Source: Gammaproteobacteria bacterium (GTDB lineage Bacteria > Pseudomonadota > Gammaproteobacteria > JBCCGL01). Taken from it: 64,000 bases of DNA. Positions 36,783-44,027 of the stretch are shown piece by piece. A program made the translations under genes and the position numbers. Location: assembly GCA_965277715.1 (NCBI GenBank), contig OZ255836.1, forward strand, positions 2,272,001 to 2,336,000, given 5' to 3'. The notes beneath the pieces were generated by a model that saw nothing but the letters and a program-made list of their open reading frames with translations, made no database searches and was not told the origin of the DNA. The first letter of the stretch is position 1. Each line of letters begins with the position of its first letter.

Positions 36783-37059
36783 CTCCCTAAAAACGCAGGT
36801 GCTTTACCGATTCCCCCGAATCGATCAGTTCACGCAGGGCATCAATGCCGATTTTCAAGTGTGTTTCAACATGATCAGCCGTCACCTTGTCGTCGCTTTT
36901 AGCGGTTTTGACCCCCTCCGGCTGCATGGGCATATCAGACACTAATAACAAAGCACCGTGAGGGATTTTATTGGCAAAGCCGACGATAAACAGGGTCGCG
37001 GTTTCCATATCGATAACGGATACGCGGATCTTCTTTAGGTATTCCTTGAACACCACATC
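36783..37059 (-). pseudogene. Duplicated 3' third of amn (direct repeat of 37912-38188)
   Basis: About 277 bp with about 14 mismatches by manual count; includes the stop codon; offset 1129 bp. Confidence 0.95.
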
Positions 37060-37125: not shown

Positions 37126-37530
37126 TTATCTAAAAGGGTTGCAAATACGCAGCTTTTTTTCAATCATTAAGTTGTGTTGCATATCTTCCGAATATAATAT
37201 TTCGCAATTCGTAATCAGTGCAACTGATACAATCATTGCGTCATAAACACTCAGTTGATAACGTTCTGCTAGAAATCTACCTTTATCATGCGCCTCAAGC
37301 GTTAACGGTTTTACGGTGCATAAAGAGCATATCAGTAACAAAAATTCATTGATTTTCTCCCACGGCATGGAGAACTTGCGGCGAGTTACGTTGACGATTT
37401 CATTCAATACCAGAACACTGATTATCCCACCGAGCTTGACAGTGGCTTCAGCACGGTTAGCTTTCTCTTCGTTATCTGATAGTAGGTATAATAAAATATT
37501 GGTGTCGAAAAACACCTTAGTTGCGCGCAT
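37126..37530 (-). CDS. vapC: VapC PIN-domain toxin
   Basis: FFDTNILLY, LNE, YDAMIV, LYSEDM; start at 37530 overlaps the antitoxin stop. Confidence 0.92.
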   Translation of the reverse strand: MRATKVFFDTNILLYLLSDNEEKANRAEATVKLGGIISVLVLNEIVNVTRRKFSMPWEKINEFLLLICSLCTVKPLTLEAHDKGRFLAERYQLSVYDAMIVSVALITNCEILYSEDMQHNLMIEKKLRICNPFR

Positions 37531-37750
37531 TGGCGTATTCCCTGTCAAATTTAAAATCGGCAGGTAGTTTCCCTCGAAACGACCGTAACCGTGCAAGTAA
37601 ATCTTCGTTATCGGTTTTTTTTGCTATTTGGAAGACTCTCGTATCCGCCACCACAATTTCAATATCATCCCCCGGACGTAGTTCCAATGCCTGCACAACT
37701 GGATTAGGCAGCCTGACGGCCAGACTATTGCCCCACTTAGAAACTCGCAT
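37517..37750 (-). CDS. vapB: AbrB/MazE-type antitoxin
   Basis: KWGNSLAVRLP; 77 aa; upstream of and overlapping the PIN gene. Confidence 0.92.
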   Translation of the reverse strand: MRVSKWGNSLAVRLPNPVVQALELRPGDDIEIVVADTRVFQIAKKTDNEDLLARLRSFRGKLPADFKFDREYANARN

Positions 37751-37786: not shown

Positions 37787-37915
37787 ATATCCTCGTGATA
37801 CCTCAACGGGAAGCCTTCTTTAAAAGAACAAGGGGTTAAATATATTTAATAGTATTTAAAATATGCTATGACCCTGAAATGTATACCCAATCAATCATAA
37901 CCGAAGAATTACTCC

Positions 37916-38686
37916 CTAAAAACGCAGGTGCTTTACTGATTCCCCCGAATCGATCAGTTCGCGCAGGGCATCAATGCCGATTTTCAAGTGCATTTCGACG
38001 TGATCAGCCGTCACCTTGTCGTCGCTTTTAGCGGTCTTGACCCCCTCCGGCTGCATGGGCATATCAGACACTAATAACAAGGCACCGTGAGGAATTTTGT
38101 TGGCAAAGCCGACGATAAACAGGGTCGCGGTTTCCATATCGATACCGGCTACGCGGATCTTTTTTAGGTATTCCTTGAACGCCACATCGTGCTCCCATAC
38201 GCGCCGGTTGGTGGTGTACACCGCACCTGTCCAGTAGTCCCGCTGGGTTTTTCTAATACTGTGCGATACTGCCATTTGCAGGCGAAACGATGGCAGCGCC
38301 GGAATTTCTGCGGGCATATAGTCATTGCCAGTCCCCTCACCGCGAATCGCGGCAATCGGCAGGATAAAATCACCAATGGCGATTTTTTTCTTCAGACCAC
38401 CGCATTTACCGAGAAACAACACCGCCTTGGGCCGGATAGCGCTGAGCAAATCCATCACCGTCGCTGCCAGCGGGCTGCCCATACCAAAATCGATAATGCT
38501 GATGTTGTTAGCAGTGGCCGATTGCATGGGCCGCCCTTCACCGGCAATAGGCACAGCGTAGTATTGGCTAAACAATTCCACGTAGTGGTGAAAATTAGTC
38601 AGCAGAATATATTCACCAAAGGTCGATTTTTCCACTCCGGTATAGCGCGGCAGCCAGTTGTCGACGATCTCGCTTTTGGTTTCCAC
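37916..38686 (-). CDS. amn: AMP nucleosidase (short type)
   Basis: NWLPRYTG, YILLTNF, FGMGS, LGKCGGL, IDMETAT, SVKHLRF. Confidence 0.92.
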   Translation of the reverse strand: METKSEIVDNWLPRYTGVEKSTFGEYILLTNFHHYVELFSQYYAVPIAGEGRPMQSATANNISIIDFGMGSPLAATVMDLLSAIRPKAVLFLGKCGGLKKKIAIGDFILPIAAIRGEGTGNDYMPAEIPALPSFRLQMAVSHSIRKTQRDYWTGAVYTTNRRVWEHDVAFKEYLKKIRVAGIDMETATLFIVGFANKIPHGALLLVSDMPMQPEGVKTAKSDDKVTADHVEMHLKIGIDALRELIDSGESVKHLRF

Positions 38687-39962: not shown

Positions 39963-40451
39963 TTACAAGGCCAGCACCCCCTGCCGGGCGCCCTCCAGGT
40001 TCAATAAAAAATGCTTGGTTGGCAGTCCGCCTCCAAAGCCCGTCAGGCGGCCATTATGACCGATGACCCGGTGACAGGGCACAATAATGGGGAGTGGGTT
40101 GCTGCCGTTTGCCGCCCCCACCGCCCGCACTGCCTTGGGTTTGTCTATCTGCCGGGCAATTTCGCCGTAACTGCGCGTTTCACCGTAGGGAATCGTTTGC
40201 AGTGCCTGCCACACAGCGCATTGAAATGCTGTGCCGACCGGCGCCAGGTCGAGTGAAAAAACCGTTAATTCGCCGTCGAAGTAAGCGCGTAACTGTTCTA
40301 TGGCGGCGGCAAAGAGTGCCGTCGACTCGGCCCAGTCATCGCTGTGTACCCGCTTTTTATGGCCCTCTGGGAAGCTGAGTATCCTCAGACCTGCATCATC
40401 CCCCGCCAGTAGGAGTTTGCCCACCGGGCTATCGTAGTAGGTGTAATGCAT
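39963..40451 (-). CDS. ogt: Methylated-DNA--protein-cysteine methyltransferase
   Basis: GTAFQ..VW, RAVGAANG.NP, PCHRV. Confidence 0.95.
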   Translation of the reverse strand: MHYTYYDSPVGKLLLAGDDAGLRILSFPEGHKKRVHSDDWAESTALFAAAIEQLRAYFDGELTVFSLDLAPVGTAFQCAVWQALQTIPYGETRSYGEIARQIDKPKAVRAVGAANGSNPLPIIVPCHRVIGHNGRLTGFGGGLPTKHFLLNLEGARQGVLAL

Positions 40452-40496
40452 ATTGGCCTCCCCTGATGTACAGTTTTGTTCATGTAATTGCGGTGA

Positions 40497-42125
40497 TCAC
40501 TCAGACAGTGATGGCTCGGGCACACCCTCTGGAAACAGGCCGCTATTGACCATAATAGCGGTAATTTGCTGCGCTTCGGGTAACTTCATTTTCATCGTGG
40601 TCGCTAAAGCCTTTAGCAAAAGCTGCCGTGCCTGGCTATCGTCACCAGGGATTGCCCTTACAATTAGCAACATGGCTATCTTGGCCTGGGTAATGGCGAT
40701 GGAGCGCACATCGCCCAGACGTTCATACACCGGCAATTCCTCTTCCCTATGAATCCGCAACGCCTCATCAAGCTGACCCCGTGCCTCCAGGGTGTCCGCA
40801 ATCTGGCCTTTGGTGACCGCGATGGAACGCACATCGCCCAGGCGTTCATATATCGGCAGTTGATCCTCCTCACGGATCCGCAACGCCTCATCAAGCTGAC
40901 CCCGAGCCTTCAGGATATCCGCAATCTGGCCTTTGGTGACCGCGATGGAACGCACATCGCCCAGACGTTCATACACCGGCAGTTGATCCTCCTCACGGAT
41001 CCGCAACGCCTCATCAAGCTGACCCCGAGCCTCCAAAATGTCCGCAATCTGGCCTTTGGTGACCGCGATGGAACGCACATCGCCCAGACGTTCATACACC
41101 GGCAGTTGATCCTCCTCACGGATCCGCAACGCCTCATCAAGCTGACCCCGAGCCTCCAAAATGTCCGCAATCTGGCCTTTGGTGACCGCGATGGAACGCA
41201 CATCGCCCAGACGTTCATACACCGGCAGTTGATCCTCCTCACGGATCCGCAACGCCTCATCAAGCTGACCCCGAGCCTCCAAAATGTCCGCAATCTGGCC
41301 TTTGGTGACCGCGATGGAACGCACATCGCCCAGACGTTCATACACCGGCAATTCCTCTTCCCTATGAATCCGCAACGCCTCATCAAACTGACCTTGTATG
41401 CGTCTGATGGTAGCCAGTCGACTCATGGCGTAAGCATTACTCAGCCGATCATCAAACTGCATGGCAAGATCACCCGCGAGATTGGCTACGGCTTCAGCGG
41501 TAGGGATGTCTCCCAACGCCAGGTGGATATCCACCTTTTCAAGCAACAGGGTAATCTGTTGGTGTGATGCCTCCCGGTCATTGAGGTAGGTTTCAAGCAC
41601 TTGCAGGCGCTGTAATTTTTCCTCTTTATCGATGATATTGACATTCTCAATCGGCTTCAGGTCTACGGGTGTTGTCCCGGTAATCAACTTAAAGTCGAGT
41701 ATCGCCGTTCGCCAGGCCCATAGATCCGGTGCCTGATGGGCAAAACGCGACAATTCGTCTGGGTTCAACCATAGCAAAATACTGGTTTTAAGCGCCTCGG
41801 CCAAGGCTTCCCGCCCATAGTTCAACCGGGCGAACAGTTGCTTGCCACCATGCTGTCGCAGCACTTCGCCAATGCCGGTAACATGCAGTACTGTGGCCTG
41901 TTTAGCCTGTTCAATCAGGGTACTAATAAAGGCCTCTGACGGCAGTGCTGCCGGGATTTCCCATAGATGGGTAGGCAGGGATTGTTCAGCGAGTTTTTTT
42001 TGCAGGGTGTCTACATAGCCCGCGAAGTTGTGCTCGATAAGGATTAGCTGGAATTGGTGGTGATGTTTTAGCAGGCGTTGCAGCCGAATGTAGTCACCGG
42101 AGTGGTAGGTCTTTAGATCGGCCAC
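40497..42125 (-). CDS. TPR-repeat protein with an uncharacterised N-terminal alpha/beta domain
   Basis: N-terminal LNYGREAL...ILLWL...APDLWAWR; 41-aa repeats GDVRSIAVTKGQIADILEARGQLDEALRIREEDQLPVYERL; starts 5 nt after the ATPase stop. Confidence 0.9.
   Translation of the reverse strand: MADLKTYHSGDYIRLQRLLKHHHQFQLILIEHNFAGYVDTLQKKLAEQSLPTHLWEIPAALPSEAFISTLIEQAKQATVLHVTGIGEVLRQHGGKQLFARLNYGREALAEALKTSILLWLNPDELSRFAHQAPDLWAWRTAILDFKLITGTTPVDLKPIENVNIIDKEEKLQRLQVLETYLNDREASHQQITLLLEKVDIHLALGDIPTAEAVANLAGDLAMQFDDRLSNAYAMSRLATIRRIQGQFDEALRIHREEELPVYERLGDVRSIAVTKGQIADILEARGQLDEALRIREEDQLPVYERLGDVRSIAVTKGQIADILEARGQLDEALRIREEDQLPVYERLGDVRSIAVTKGQIADILEARGQLDEALRIREEDQLPVYERLGDVRSIAVTKGQIADILKARGQLDEALRIREEDQLPIYERLGDVRSIAVTKGQIADTLEARGQLDEALRIHREEELPVYERLGDVRSIAITQAKIAMLLIVRAIPGDDSQARQLLLKALATTMKMKLPEAQQITAIMVNSGLFPEGVPEPSLSE
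40696..41392. repeat. 123-bp tandem repeat array (about 5.7 units)
   Basis: Units start at 40696, 40819, 40942, 41065, 41188 and 41311; those at 40942, 41065 and 41188 are identical by manual comparison. Confidence 0.97.
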
Positions 42126-42130
42126 GGTGC

Positions 42131-43441
42131 TTAGAGGGCGGCACGGTAGTTAGGCAACAGCCGCACTACCGGGTGGCTCTGCCACCAGAAATTATTGTAT
42201 TCCAATAAAACCAGATCATAGAGCAGGCGGCGGGTTTGCTCATTGACAGGAGTGAAGTCTTTATTCTCCTGGTCTATGCCGGCAAGCCTGGAGTAATCGT
42301 CAATGGTAATCAGGCGGCTGTATTCCTTGGCAAGCAGTTGTATAGCTTTGTTTGCGATGGCGCAGGTGATGGGAGCGTCGTCGGTCTCCTGGAAGCATAG
42401 GCCAATCAGTCGCAGCAGGTCTCTGGGGTGCCCGCCACAGGCGCCGATCAGTTCATTCAGAGTCGCCTCGCTCTCAAAGGCCTGTATCGGCAGTCGCCGG
42501 GTAATCAGTTCGCGCATTTTTTCCCAGGCGATGGGGATTTTTTTGTCCGACGCTTTTTCCGTGAGTTTTATCATGGGCAGTCTGAATACTGCGTCAAAAT
42601 TCTGCCCGGCCTGCCCTTGTTCTGCCAGTATATGGATAGGTGTGCAGTAGATAAAATTGGCTTTGATTTGCCGCAGTTGGTGAATGTCCTGGATAAAAAA
42701 GGCGGTGGCGTCATCCCCTTGTATCCTGTCGGTGCCGTCGATGATGAAGATCAGGGATTGCGCCAGGTTGTTGGTTTTTATTGCATCCCGGGCAAAATCC
42801 AGGAGCTGGTTGAACGCCTCGGCAAACTCTGAGAAAGCATCTTTGATTTCGCGACGTATTTCCTCTTTATAGCTGGAGTTAGTGCTGATAGCGGTGGTCA
42901 GTGAAGCGAACAGCTTGCCGACCAGAGGTAGCCCGACACTGGCCTCGGCACCCGTTTTCAACTCAGTGGCCAGGCTGCGGGCGCGTTCAATTTTTTCCAC
43001 CCGTGCGTCAAACCAGCGCAGTAACCGGTCGAAGAAGACAAACGGCACGTCGATACCTTCGTCTTGTAAACGCTCGATAAGTGCCTTGGCCTCCAGCAGG
43101 GCTATGTCGCAGTAGCGCAGGTTGTGTACATCCAGCTCTTTGACGGCATCGATGGCAATTACCAGAAAGCCTTCAGGGTTAGCCAGGTCTTTACTGAGTG
43201 CTCTTAATTCGGTGCTTTTGCCACAGCCCCGGTGGCCACCAAACAGTAGGTATTGGTTGTGTAGGTGTGTATTGCGCAACTGCCGGGAGCTGGCGTGCAT
43301 GCCCAACTGACGCAGGATGGGTGCGCGGCTGAATTGACCGCGCGCGGCGCTCAGGTCGACCAGTAGCGGGTCACCAGGGTCTAGCGGCAGATCGTAGTTA
43401 AAGTTTTGCCGGTAGTCCCAAAGGTTTGGGGTGTCGCTCAT
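42131..43441 (-). CDS. P-loop ATPase (AAA+/STAND/KAP-like)
   Basis: Walker A GHRGCGKS, Walker B IFIIDGTD, GGHPRDLL; long helical insert between the motifs; likely start MSDTPN at 43441. Confidence 0.88.
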   Translation of the reverse strand: MSDTPNLWDYRQNFNYDLPLDPGDPLLVDLSAARGQFSRAPILRQLGMHASSRQLRNTHLHNQYLLFGGHRGCGKSTELRALSKDLANPEGFLVIAIDAVKELDVHNLRYCDIALLEAKALIERLQDEGIDVPFVFFDRLLRWFDARVEKIERARSLATELKTGAEASVGLPLVGKLFASLTTAISTNSSYKEEIRREIKDAFSEFAEAFNQLLDFARDAIKTNNLAQSLIFIIDGTDRIQGDDATAFFIQDIHQLRQIKANFIYCTPIHILAEQGQAGQNFDAVFRLPMIKLTEKASDKKIPIAWEKMRELITRRLPIQAFESEATLNELIGACGGHPRDLLRLIGLCFQETDDAPITCAIANKAIQLLAKEYSRLITIDDYSRLAGIDQENKDFTPVNEQTRRLLYDLVLLEYNNFWWQSHPVVRLLPNYRAAL

Positions 43442-43507
43442 GTGTTGGTGTTGTCTGGGATCAGGAAGTGGCAATTCTAGTGTCTGGTGCAGCTAGATGC
43501 CAGTGGT

Positions 43508-43531
43508 ACGCGTTCAGGTGCGCAAGTGCAC
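43508..43531. repeat. 24-bp copy of the mnmG 3' end
   Basis: acgcgttcaggtgcgcaagtgcac versus 45435-45458 acgcgttcaggcgcgcaagcgcac (22/24). Confidence 0.8.
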
Positions 43532-43586
43532 CTGGGCTAAGGTTTTAACCCAGTGTGCTTCGATCCAGAGCATCGCCACTGATAAC

Positions 43587-44027
43587 TTAATCCTCTTCCT
43601 TTAGCCGCATCGCCAACACATCACACTTGGCGTGATGCAATAGGGAGTTTGCGGTGGAACCTAACAGGAGTCTTATACCGTGGCGACCATGGCTACCGAC
43701 GATGATCAGGTCGCTTGCCGTGTTTTTGGCGAGTGACAAGATTTCATCCGATGCATAGCCACAAAGAACCTGGCCATTTTCTATGGCAATCCGGTGTTGC
43801 TTTAGCGTTTTCTCTAATGCCACTTGCGCTTTGGATTTTATGTCATCCGTGGTATCCAGCATCGGTATACCCGCGTAGATGCCGTCATAGCAGGGCACGA
43901 TGCCCATTTCCACTACGGTGACCACTGTCAATTCAGCACGGTATTGCGCGGCTACTTTTTTTGCCCGCGCCAGTATGTAATCTGACTCCGGTATCAGGTC
44001 AATGCCAACAAGAATTTTCTGGTACAT
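43587..44027 (-). CDS. Universal stress protein
   Basis: YQKILVGID, DLIIVGSHGRHG, LGSTA; ATG at 44027 after GGAGG. Confidence 0.93.
   Translation of the reverse strand: MYQKILVGIDLIPESDYILARAKKVAAQYRAELTVVTVVEMGIVPCYDGIYAGIPMLDTTDDIKSKAQVALEKTLKQHRIAIENGQVLCGYASDEILSLAKNTASDLIIVGSHGRHGIRLLLGSTANSLLHHAKCDVLAMRLKEED

Follow-up and report, generated by a model that had tools for sequence, protein, structure and literature searches.

The closest described concept to the gene pair examined here is the nSTAND2 operon (Kaur, Iyer, Burroughs, Aravind 2021 eLife PMC8195603), in which, according to the passages of that paper devoted to it, one STAND module is active, the other is eroded, and the two are predicted to assemble as a hetero-multimer. 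The present pair is situated in a 64,000-nt stretch of DNA (the window) from a Gammaproteobacteria bacterium (GenBank assembly GCA_965277715.1, contig OZ255836.1, positions 2,272,001 to 2,336,000 of the forward strand). According to the open reading frame (ORF) list of the window, it occupies the minus strand, on which all of its features described below are located, and consists of gene 1 (42131-43441), a P-loop ATPase of 436 aa counted from its ATG, and the downstream gene 2 (40497-42125), which has a GTG start and encodes 542 aa, a dead AAA+ domain followed by TPR repeats. In our reading, which rests on computation and for which support and doubt are about evenly balanced, the pair is an NLR-like sensor and switch divided between two proteins, with a probable role in conflict or immunity. 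The pair and nSTAND2 share a mobile two-gene operon with two STAND/AAA+-type cores, one of them eroded, and an inactive module connected to a variable part; in the pair, too, one STAND-type NTPase of the operon is active and the other inactive. However, the inactive module of nSTAND2 comprises a core, a GxP helical domain, and a winged helix, about 320 aa in all, and, in those passages of PMC8195603, is mostly fused to GT4 or HEPN, whereas here a 148-aa core is followed by TPR, and GT4 or HEPN is found in none of the 128 partner proteins scanned. Furthermore, the motifs of the nSTAND2 alignment in that paper (ILIIERFHAF, RSLEH, PFLNSxYGDNH, and GGGPD) are unlike both proteins here, in a comparison made by eye only.

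Other described systems share single elements with the pair, with significant differences in their architecture. The iSTAND and iSTAND2 ternary systems, in the relevant passages of PMC7159879 and PMC8195603, utilize an inactive STAND-type module as the sensing or assembly part of a predicted conflict system; filamentous or multicellular bacteria are enriched in them, and their recurrent partners include FGE-sulfatase (FGS) and TIR, both of which also appear, rarely, in the partner proteins here. However, the iSTAND systems in those passages are built on a MoxR-vWA pair (PMC7159879), whereas no MoxR or vWA recurs in the 80 loci inspected here. Single-chain STAND/NLR proteins with TPR, such as Avs/AVAST, MalT-type, and NB-ARC-TPR proteins, possess the same nucleotide-binding domain, lid, and winged helix together with a TPR sensor; the likeness extends to the structural matches of gene 1 with Avs3 (Z 10.1), MalT (11.1), and plant NLRs (11.8-12.7), and to the TPR_MalT and TPR_12 families in the partners. 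Compared with these proteins, the switch and the sensor are separate in the pair and are joined via the dead AAA+ domain, without an N-terminal effector and without a PADLOC match to Avs. In fungal NLRs with highly conserved internal repeats, the passages of Dyrka et al. 2014 (PMC4986451) on these repeats describe TPR, WD, and ANK units that are near-identical in DNA and are read as recognition diversity. These are eukaryotic single chains, whereas the arrays described here are bacterial and family-wide, occurring in 44 of 75 genes. ORC/Cdc6 and clamp-loader hetero-oligomers, which provide the best fold matches of both proteins, also contain a dead AAA+ subunit completing the nucleotide site of the live subunit, but the pair is without sign of DNA binding and without replication context.

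The two genes form a conserved module. In a sample started from the ATPase (80 of 300 matching loci, species-representative genomes), a dead-AAA+ ORF is located directly downstream on the same strand in 75 of the 80 loci, although three of these are weak or incomplete (Ns occur in L002, L003 is fragmentary, and L023 matches at 3e-5). In the five unpaired loci, the contig ends 81 nt past the ATPase (L001), the downstream genes are unrelated or none is present (L037, L047, and L042), or the ATPase is part of a fusion (L012). A second sample was started from the partner with the pattern APD[LMF]WAWR (80 of 320 loci, 79 of them new, with a 19-sequence alignment subset biased to members bearing this pattern), and the ATPase lies upstream in 78 of the 79 loci, 75 by a strict adjacency rule and three (L132, L136, and L142) on inspection. 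The two counts are not independent, because about a third of the partner loci share contigs with the first set. Co-occurrence in other genomes, on which the preliminary description of this DNA had staked its proposal, is thereby found from both sides of the pair. Meanwhile, no third gene recurs beside the pair among 711 greedily called ORFs in the 80 loci, and the flanking genes vary by locus. Two partner loci have other arrangements: in a Desulfococcus metagenome-assembled genome (MAG), an orphan dead-AAA+/TPR gene (L111:3196-4944) has no ATPase within 3.2 kb upstream, and in a Thiohalocapsa MAG (L136:1667-6140), a three-gene variant presents the ATPase flanked on both sides by a dead-AAA+/TPR gene.

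In the window, the stop codon of gene 1 and the start codon of gene 2 are separated by the 5-nt gap GCACC (TAA-GCACC-GTG; 42126..42130), and in homologous loci the two ORFs abut or overlap. An upstream TTG at 43474 could lengthen gene 1 by 11 aa; the start is taken as the ATG, because the homologues begin there. These coordinates and the housekeeping-type flanks agree with the original account of a two-gene unit with a 5-nt gap amid unrelated metabolic genes.

Gene 1 (42131..43441) encodes a stand-alone AAA+ ATPase of the ORC/Cdc6-STAND type, as delineated from the ORF, its homologues, the AlphaFold2 model, and a structural search with VIA-align. The model, with a predicted local distance difference test score (pLDDT) of 88.3 and a predicted template modelling score (pTM) of 0.88, comprises an N-terminal extension, the nucleotide-binding domain with a helical insert, the lid, and a winged helix. 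The motifs noticed initially in gene 1, namely intact Walker A and B, GGHPR, and a long helical insert, are borne out by an alignment of 24 homologues and by the model. In Walker A (GGHRGCGKST, residues 68-77; 43211..43240), G69, H70, G72, G74, S76, and T77 are invariant and K75 is near-invariant; in the Walker B strand with its DGTDR (residues 230-239; 42725..42754; IFIIDGTDR at about 231-239, family pattern hhhhDGTDR), F232, D235, G236, and R239 are invariant. The GGHPR motif of the lid (residues 336-340; 42422..42436), which continues to GGHPRDL (336-342), contains the invariant G336, H338, and R340 and is situated at what we take to be the sensor-2 or STAND "GxP" position. Between Walker A and Walker B, an insert of ~115 aa (residues 110-225; 42767..43114), delimited from the model and the alignment, includes the conserved hydrophobic stretch GLPLVGKLFASLTTAI and forms helices at residues 110-127, 138-150, 155-165, 171-186, 192-201, and 203-223, with P172 and F178 invariant in the 24 homologues. 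At the C-terminus, LLEYNxYWWQSHP is also invariant in this alignment.

The word-indexed search, in which 8,000 candidates were scored, gives 724 homologues of gene 1 at E-values of 1e-3 or better, a family of uniform length (430-460 aa). Few are named among the matches listed ("hypothetical", "AAA family ATPase", and "Orc1-like AAA ATPase"). The absence of a sensor or effector domain from gene 1, likewise claimed at the outset, is sustained: the chain stops after the winged helix without sensor repeats, the 120 listed homologues are all 381-492 aa long, no search aimed at longer fused forms having been made, and no recognisable effector is encoded at the locus.

The classification of gene 1 is less sharp than its anatomy. 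NPHP3_N is the sole Pfam match above the cut-off, and only narrowly (26.2 versus 24.8 bits), with NACHT (24.7 versus 26.7), AAA_16 (23.3 versus 32.6), ORC-CDC6-like, and nSTAND3/5 below their cut-offs. Across the 24 family members, AAA_16 is matched by 21, ORC-CDC6-like by 14, NACHT by 13, ATPase_2 by 12, and KAP_NTPase by two; KAP_NTPase is also carried by 12-95% of the members in the atlas look-alike clusters of gene 1. NCBIfam, PADLOC, and PDB sequence searches give nothing significant for gene 1, the best hit in PADLOC-DB 2.0 being VakA at 0.0092. In the VIA-align comparison of the model with 48,161 chains, the highest scores belong to archaeal Cdc6/Orc1 (2qby_A, Z 15.0, residues 7-436) and TnsC (14.8), followed by the archaeal PF01637 ATPases PAB2304 (14.0) and SSO1545 (13.5), plant NLRs (11.8-12.7, with WRR4A at 12.7), MalT (11.1), RdrA (10.9), BrxC (10.9), Avs3 (10.1), and CED-4 (9.7). 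The alignments with plant NLRs, MalT, and CED-4 cover residues 21-436, and Foldseek concurs with VIA-align, placing BrxC at 4.4e-5. Walker A and Walker B as well as the nucleotide-binding domain, lid, and winged helix expected of STAND proteins are all present; however, this layout cannot separate STAND from ORC/Cdc6, because both clades share it. Gene 1 is in the ORC/Cdc6-STAND neighbourhood of the AAA+ ATPases, with firm placement in neither clade, and is not demonstrably inside STAND. Of the original proposal of a split NLR-like pair, the separate switch and its dead-AAA+/TPR partner are supported computationally, whereas the STAND membership of gene 1, for which NPHP3_N alone passes its cut-off, is not demonstrable.

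In KAP NTPases, the P-loop domain possesses transmembrane helices in an insert between Walker A and B; gene 1 has its insert at the KAP-type position, without a convincing membrane helix, and a KAP_NTPase match exists in 2 of 24 members. The most hydrophobic 19-aa segment of the insert reaches a hydropathy of 1.42 and includes a lysine, giving no support to a membrane-helix reading. Simultaneously, the net charge is -4 for the insert (family median -3) and -2 for the winged helix (family median -4). The acidity of both regions across the family argues against DNA binding by gene 1, which was set aside as the principal reading.

The N-terminal domain of gene 2 (residues 1-148; 41682..42125) is a pseudo-AAA+ domain without Walker A, delimited from the AlphaFold2 model, VIA-align, and Foldseek. 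Its model (pLDDT 87.4, pTM 0.74) has a five-stranded alpha/beta core with the strand order beta-alpha-beta. The top 50 rows of VIA-align for these residues are all AAA+ ATPases (Z 9.5-11.7), and Foldseek gives Cdc6/ORC as its best match (1.1e-4), followed by NSF D2, Hda, and the AAA+ domain of Sir3. Across 50 homologues, and likewise in 148 further representatives, no glycine-lysine P-loop is present, and the consensus at the P-loop position is xYxDxxYRD. These data support an AAA+ core that, judging from the modelled fold, lost its nucleotide-binding loop; the inactive NTPase fold that had been suspected is thus recovered by both structural searches. The domain of about 150 aa had also been recognised by LNxxRE, LLWL, and APDLWAW, and all three motifs are conserved across the 50 homologues. 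In LNYGRE (family LNYxRE, residues 101-106; 41808..41825), N102 and R105 are invariant in the 50 and in the 148 sequences. In APDLWAWR (residues 132-139; 41709..41732), located at the end of helix alpha-4 just ahead of strand beta-5, A132, D134, W136, W138, and R139 are invariant, as is W119 among the 50 N-termini. From the model, R139 appears to be located at the arginine-finger position of AAA+ proteins.

Pfam, NCBIfam, and PDB sequence searches contain no match for residues 1-200 of gene 2, and the word-indexed search with residues 1-190 finds only three proteins, a limit of that method. At the level of representative clusters, a threshold of 1e-3 yields 4,056 matches to the dead domain, and one of 1e-10 yields 1,326. 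Of 150 listed representatives, 149 carry the domain N-terminally, the exception being P0265 (residues 162-316), and the consensus of the 148 best representatives continues after the domain into TPR-like LGD...A..IA units. A recent duplication of gene 1 as the origin of the dead domain was considered and is unsupported, because the hhalign probability between the two families is 12%.

Between the two proteins, one complex prediction was made with both family alignments, ATP, and Mg, together with three controls. It yields an interface score (interaction prediction score from aligned errors, ipSAE) of 0.79 (runs 0.81, 0.79, and 0.69) versus 0.00 for the best of the three controls, with a partner pLDDT of at least 76 and at least 60% of the contacts common to the runs. 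For calibration, the docking mark is reached by 116 of 157 solved complexes and by 2 of 215 mismatched pairs. At the level of model confidence, this agrees with the earlier suggestion that the N-domain of gene 2 docks on gene 1. On the gene 2 side, the predicted interface is formed by residues 133-134 and 137-139 of APDLWAWR and by residues 102-107 around LNYxRE. On the gene 1 side, it is constituted by R71 and G72 of the P-loop, R239, Q241, R340 of GGHPR, the lid helices, and the N-terminal extension. P133, D134, and A137 of gene 2 are predicted to contact R71, G72, R239, and R340 of gene 1; R340 would lie against residue 137 of gene 2, and R139 of gene 2 against residue 373 of gene 1. In the predicted complex, the two chains meet as neighbouring AAA+ subunits ordinarily do, and the dead domain takes the place of the subunit that would supply the arginine finger.

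Downstream of the dead domain, gene 2 contains six tandem 41-aa (123-nt) TPR_12-type units (residues 245-490; 40656..41393; unit count and Pfam TPR_12 at 1.2e-18), followed by a C-terminal helical cap without a family match (residues 491-542 plus the stop codon in the ORF; 40497..40655). At 40696-41393, Tandem Repeats Finder detects 5.7 copies with a 123-nt period and 94% matches. By unit comparison, units 2 and 3 are identical at 123 of 123 nt (41025..41270), and units 2-5 otherwise differ at 4-7 nt. Unit 1 is 9 nt from units 2 and 3 and 13-16 nt from units 4 and 5, and unit 6 is 24-33 nt from each other unit. The 41-aa array with DNA-identical units, as it was first characterised, is therefore correct for units 2 and 3, whereas the others are near-identical only. 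Such arrays are not confined to the window. DNA-level tandem repeats are found in 44 of 75 partner genes, with a period of 123 nt in 31 and of 120, 240, 246, 360, or 369 nt in the remainder, 70%-98% matches, and up to 10.9 copies. Within the arrays of 40 proteins with at least four units, the least variable unit positions are G1, A6, L7, P16, and A35, and the most variable are 10-14, 24-27, 29-33, and 39-40. As a description of variability rather than a formal test of selection, this pattern is consistent with a TPR scaffold carrying variable surface residues. Two repetitive off-frame ORFs cross the array, at 40749-41567 (plus strand, 272 aa) and 40910-41386 (minus strand, 158 aa); they are by-products of the 123-nt repeat and not genes.

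In the partners as a group, the dead domain remains constant and the part behind it is mostly TPR. Among 128 distinct partner ORFs (75 at an E-value of 1e-5 and 53 at 1e-8), the TPR families TPR_12, TPR_10, and TPR_MalT are present in 103, 22 have no family match, many of them cut by contig ends, and three carry other modules instead of TPR. The partner at L008 joins the dead domain to NACHT/nSTAND3 and FGE-sulfatase, that at L123 to DUF4062, NACHT, and FGE-sulfatase, and that at L021, which is cut by a contig end, to nSTAND5 and TIR. This answers the proposal to tabulate the domains fused to the N-domain of gene 2 beside ATPase homologues. The FGE-sulfatase module is the FGS sensor or effector domain in the passages on it of Kaur et al. 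2020 (PMC7159879), and DUF4062 is termed an immune NADase domain in part of a 2026 preprint. In addition, a Methylovulum MAG contains the ATPase fused in frame (806 aa; L012:5953-9245) with an AAA_15/AAA_21 ATPase, whose match to the PADLOC candidate PDC-M38A is at 9.3e-124. A DUF3226/PDC-M38B protein (3.8e-108) follows this fusion, and no dead-AAA+/TPR partner is present there. The fusion is possibly an assembly error, because it is observed on a single MAG contig.

The family is widely but patchily distributed. Hosts, taken from record titles, include Accumulibacter, Competibacter, Zoogloea, Sphaerotilus, relatives of Thiothrix and Leucothrix, cable bacteria, Magnetococcales, and Entotheonella, and further Myxococcota, Spirochaetia, Acidobacteriota, Verrucomicrobia, Actinomycetes, Chloroflexi, Cyanobacteria, Clostridia, and Omnitrophota; their habitats include sponges, for symbionts, and wastewater, for Accumulibacter and Competibacter. 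Cyanobacterial relatives, in line with the similar pairs mentioned at the outset, exist at loci L097, L143, L145, and L150 and among the atlas hits. An ATPase at 1e-40 or better occurs in only 2 of 101 sampled genomes of one family, and some genomes hold two or three divergent ATPase copies. In Accumulibacter phosphatis, the ATPase copy (L058; G001:C1:3364911-3366210) is split near residue 260 with a TAG inside, the downstream partner being intact; this copy is likely a pseudogene or a frameshift.

The stretch 40400-43600 of the window occurs in sequencing runs from five studies, of which three bear the label sponge metagenome, and four of the seven runs containing at least half of its sampled words belong to these three studies; the host organism is probably sponge-associated. 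Among the runs listed with this stretch, none is an RNA run. In four runs, its non-repeat part is about 99.5% identical or better, and the contigs of these four runs, each from a different study, differ in that part at 13 synonymous and 9 non-synonymous sites, without indels, a pattern consistent with a maintained function of the pair. In each of the four short-read assemblies, the array interrupts the sequence: contigs stop near 40734 and resume near 41357-41395. One run contains many variant short contigs inside the array, of which 112 were placed, 95 of them fitting two places.

The computation covers the anatomy, the conserved pairing, the dead-AAA+ fold, the predicted interface, and the repeat dynamics; ligand sensing, control of the ATPase, and the conflict or immunity role go beyond it by inference. 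Taken as a sensor and switch in two polypeptides, the pair could operate as follows. Gene 1 would be the active nucleotide switch, and the dead AAA+ domain of gene 2 would bind it by an ordinary AAA+ subunit-to-subunit interface, so that the APDLWAWR/LNYxRE face lies over the ATP pocket of gene 1 and may control ATP binding or hydrolysis. The TPR array fused to the dead domain would be the ligand-binding sensor, kept variable via gain, loss, and homogenisation of near-identical 123-nt units. A ligand bound to the array, for which a protein from a phage or another invader is the likeliest candidate, would shift the seat of the dead domain on the ATPase, and the shifted domain would release an ATP-dependent assembly. 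A conflict or immunity role is suggested indirectly by the patchy multi-copy distribution, the DNA-homogenised variable repeats, the mobility between contexts, the rare fusions with TIR, DUF4062, and NACHT-FGS, and the one fusion with a candidate defence ATPase.

Several observations weigh against this proposal. No effector domain is recognisable at the window locus or in 103 of the 128 partners, and PADLOC-DB 2.0 gives no significant system match for either protein, the best model for gene 2 being a generic TPR model at 1.1e-9. The defence-island count of the neighbours is uninformative: PADLOC hits at 1e-12 occur in 13 of 128 scanned neighbour ORFs (of 248) and at 10 of 42 loci, several of them generic, without a baseline. 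In the window, the pair stands among housekeeping genes, and its G+C (0.51-0.58) is similar to that of the flanks. No sequence kinship between the dead domain and the gene 1 family is detectable (the hhalign probability given above). As for the complex, the use of our own alignments and of ATP and Mg ligands falls outside the calibration of the docking mark. The pass may also partly reflect likeness, because AAA+/AAA+ interfaces are common among solved structures, and it is not resolved in the predicted complex whether R139 or R105 reaches the nucleotide.

The same absence of an effector and of a PADLOC match, the housekeeping neighbours with native G+C, and the purifying selection in natural populations would suit a housekeeping or regulatory AAA+ chaperone whose TPR protein is a substrate adaptor, for example in complex assembly or quality control, with no conflict role. 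TPR proteins are frequently co-chaperone adaptors, a further point in its favour. We nevertheless hold such a chaperone to be rather improbable, in view of an ATPase found in 2 of 101 genomes of one family and in several divergent copies per genome, of homogenised repeat arrays in 44 of 75 genes, of relatives fused to TIR, DUF4062, NACHT, or a candidate defence ATPase, and of flanking genes that change by locus. A different role would follow from the structural ranking of gene 1, whose best matches are AAA+ proteins of the initiator clade (Cdc6/Orc1 Z 15.0, TnsC 14.8, and BrxC at 4.4e-5) and whose helical insert is, as we take it, at the position of the DNA-contacting insert of that clade. Gene 1 would then act on DNA like ORC/Cdc6, TnsC, MuB, or BrxC, in loading, target selection, or marking, under regulation by the TPR protein. 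However, the winged helix (-2, median -4) and the insert (-4, median -3) are acidic, the 80 loci show no recurrent neighbour of the transposase, integrase, methylase, or PglZ-like type, and plant NLRs, MalT, and Avs3 match gene 1 almost as well; action on DNA appears very improbable.

The three partners at L008, L123, and L021 raise an alternative within the immune readings, since the dead domain there heads proteins that already possess their own NACHT or nSTAND switch and sensor. NLRs hold adaptor or effector domains at the position of this N-domain. The ATPase could accordingly be a constant executioner, and the dead AAA+ domain a portable adaptor through which varied sensors seed its assembly, with damage done by the insert or by ATP consumption. 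The insert is presumably at the position of the membrane helices of KAP NTPases, and KAP_NTPase is matched in 2 of 24 family members and in 12-95% of the members of the atlas look-alike clusters. However, the most hydrophobic 19-mer of the insert reaches only 1.42 and contains a lysine, nothing points to toxicity, and only three such architectures exist among 128 partners, so that we regard this division of labour as unlikely. A related and bolder formulation, doubtful at present, is that the 148-aa dead AAA+ domain would be a new immune adaptor, a portable plug letting unrelated sensors, such as hypervariable TPR arrays, DUF4062-NACHT-FGS proteins, and nSTAND-TIR proteins, nucleate a common stand-alone ATPase by completing its ATP site, with the ATPase and its conserved KAP-like insert as the executioner.

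Around the pair, the genes of the window are unrelated to it. Usp, Na/H exchanger, and MnmG genes are situated upstream, and O6-methylguanine methyltransferase, M24 peptidase, and PNP_UDP_1 phosphorylase genes downstream. Farther along this flank, two direct copies of a 277-nt sequence, 95% identical and located at 36783-37059 and 37912-38188, enclose an insert of low G+C (about 0.40). Its products are a PIN-domain toxin (37126-37596) and an AbrB/MazE-like antitoxin (37517-37750). The repeated sequence constitutes the 3' terminus of the PNP_UDP_1 phosphorylase gene (37916-38686), and its duplicated copy leaves a remnant ORF of 89 aa at 36787-37056. Because the repeat corresponds to this gene end, a vapBC-type cassette seems to have been inserted with duplication of the end of the phosphorylase gene.

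PADLOC assigns the pair to no known anti-phage system, and PADLOC, Pfam, NCBIfam, and PDB sequence searches together yield no characterised or named system for it, in keeping with the original impression of a pair without an assigned function. No published description of the pair was found in the literature, where candidate lists in the supplements of defence-discovery papers may hold it. The pair is widespread, unnamed, and experimentally tractable. In the usual single-chain NLR-type sensors, the switch cannot be examined separately from the sensor. The pair provides a natural separation of the two, and what joins them is a small dead-ATPase domain that is well modelled and has a few invariant residues open to mutation. 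If the adaptor formulation were true, heterotypic AAA+ seeding would be an immune signalling step with a logic like that of Death-fold or TIR adaptors, built from an ATPase fold and present in thousands of protein clusters from at least 10 phyla. If the pair is not defensive, it would be a common AAA+/pseudo-AAA+ pair. If it defends against phages, it would represent a widespread system in which bacteria diversify high-identity repeats, a phenomenon so far considered chiefly in fungal NLRs.

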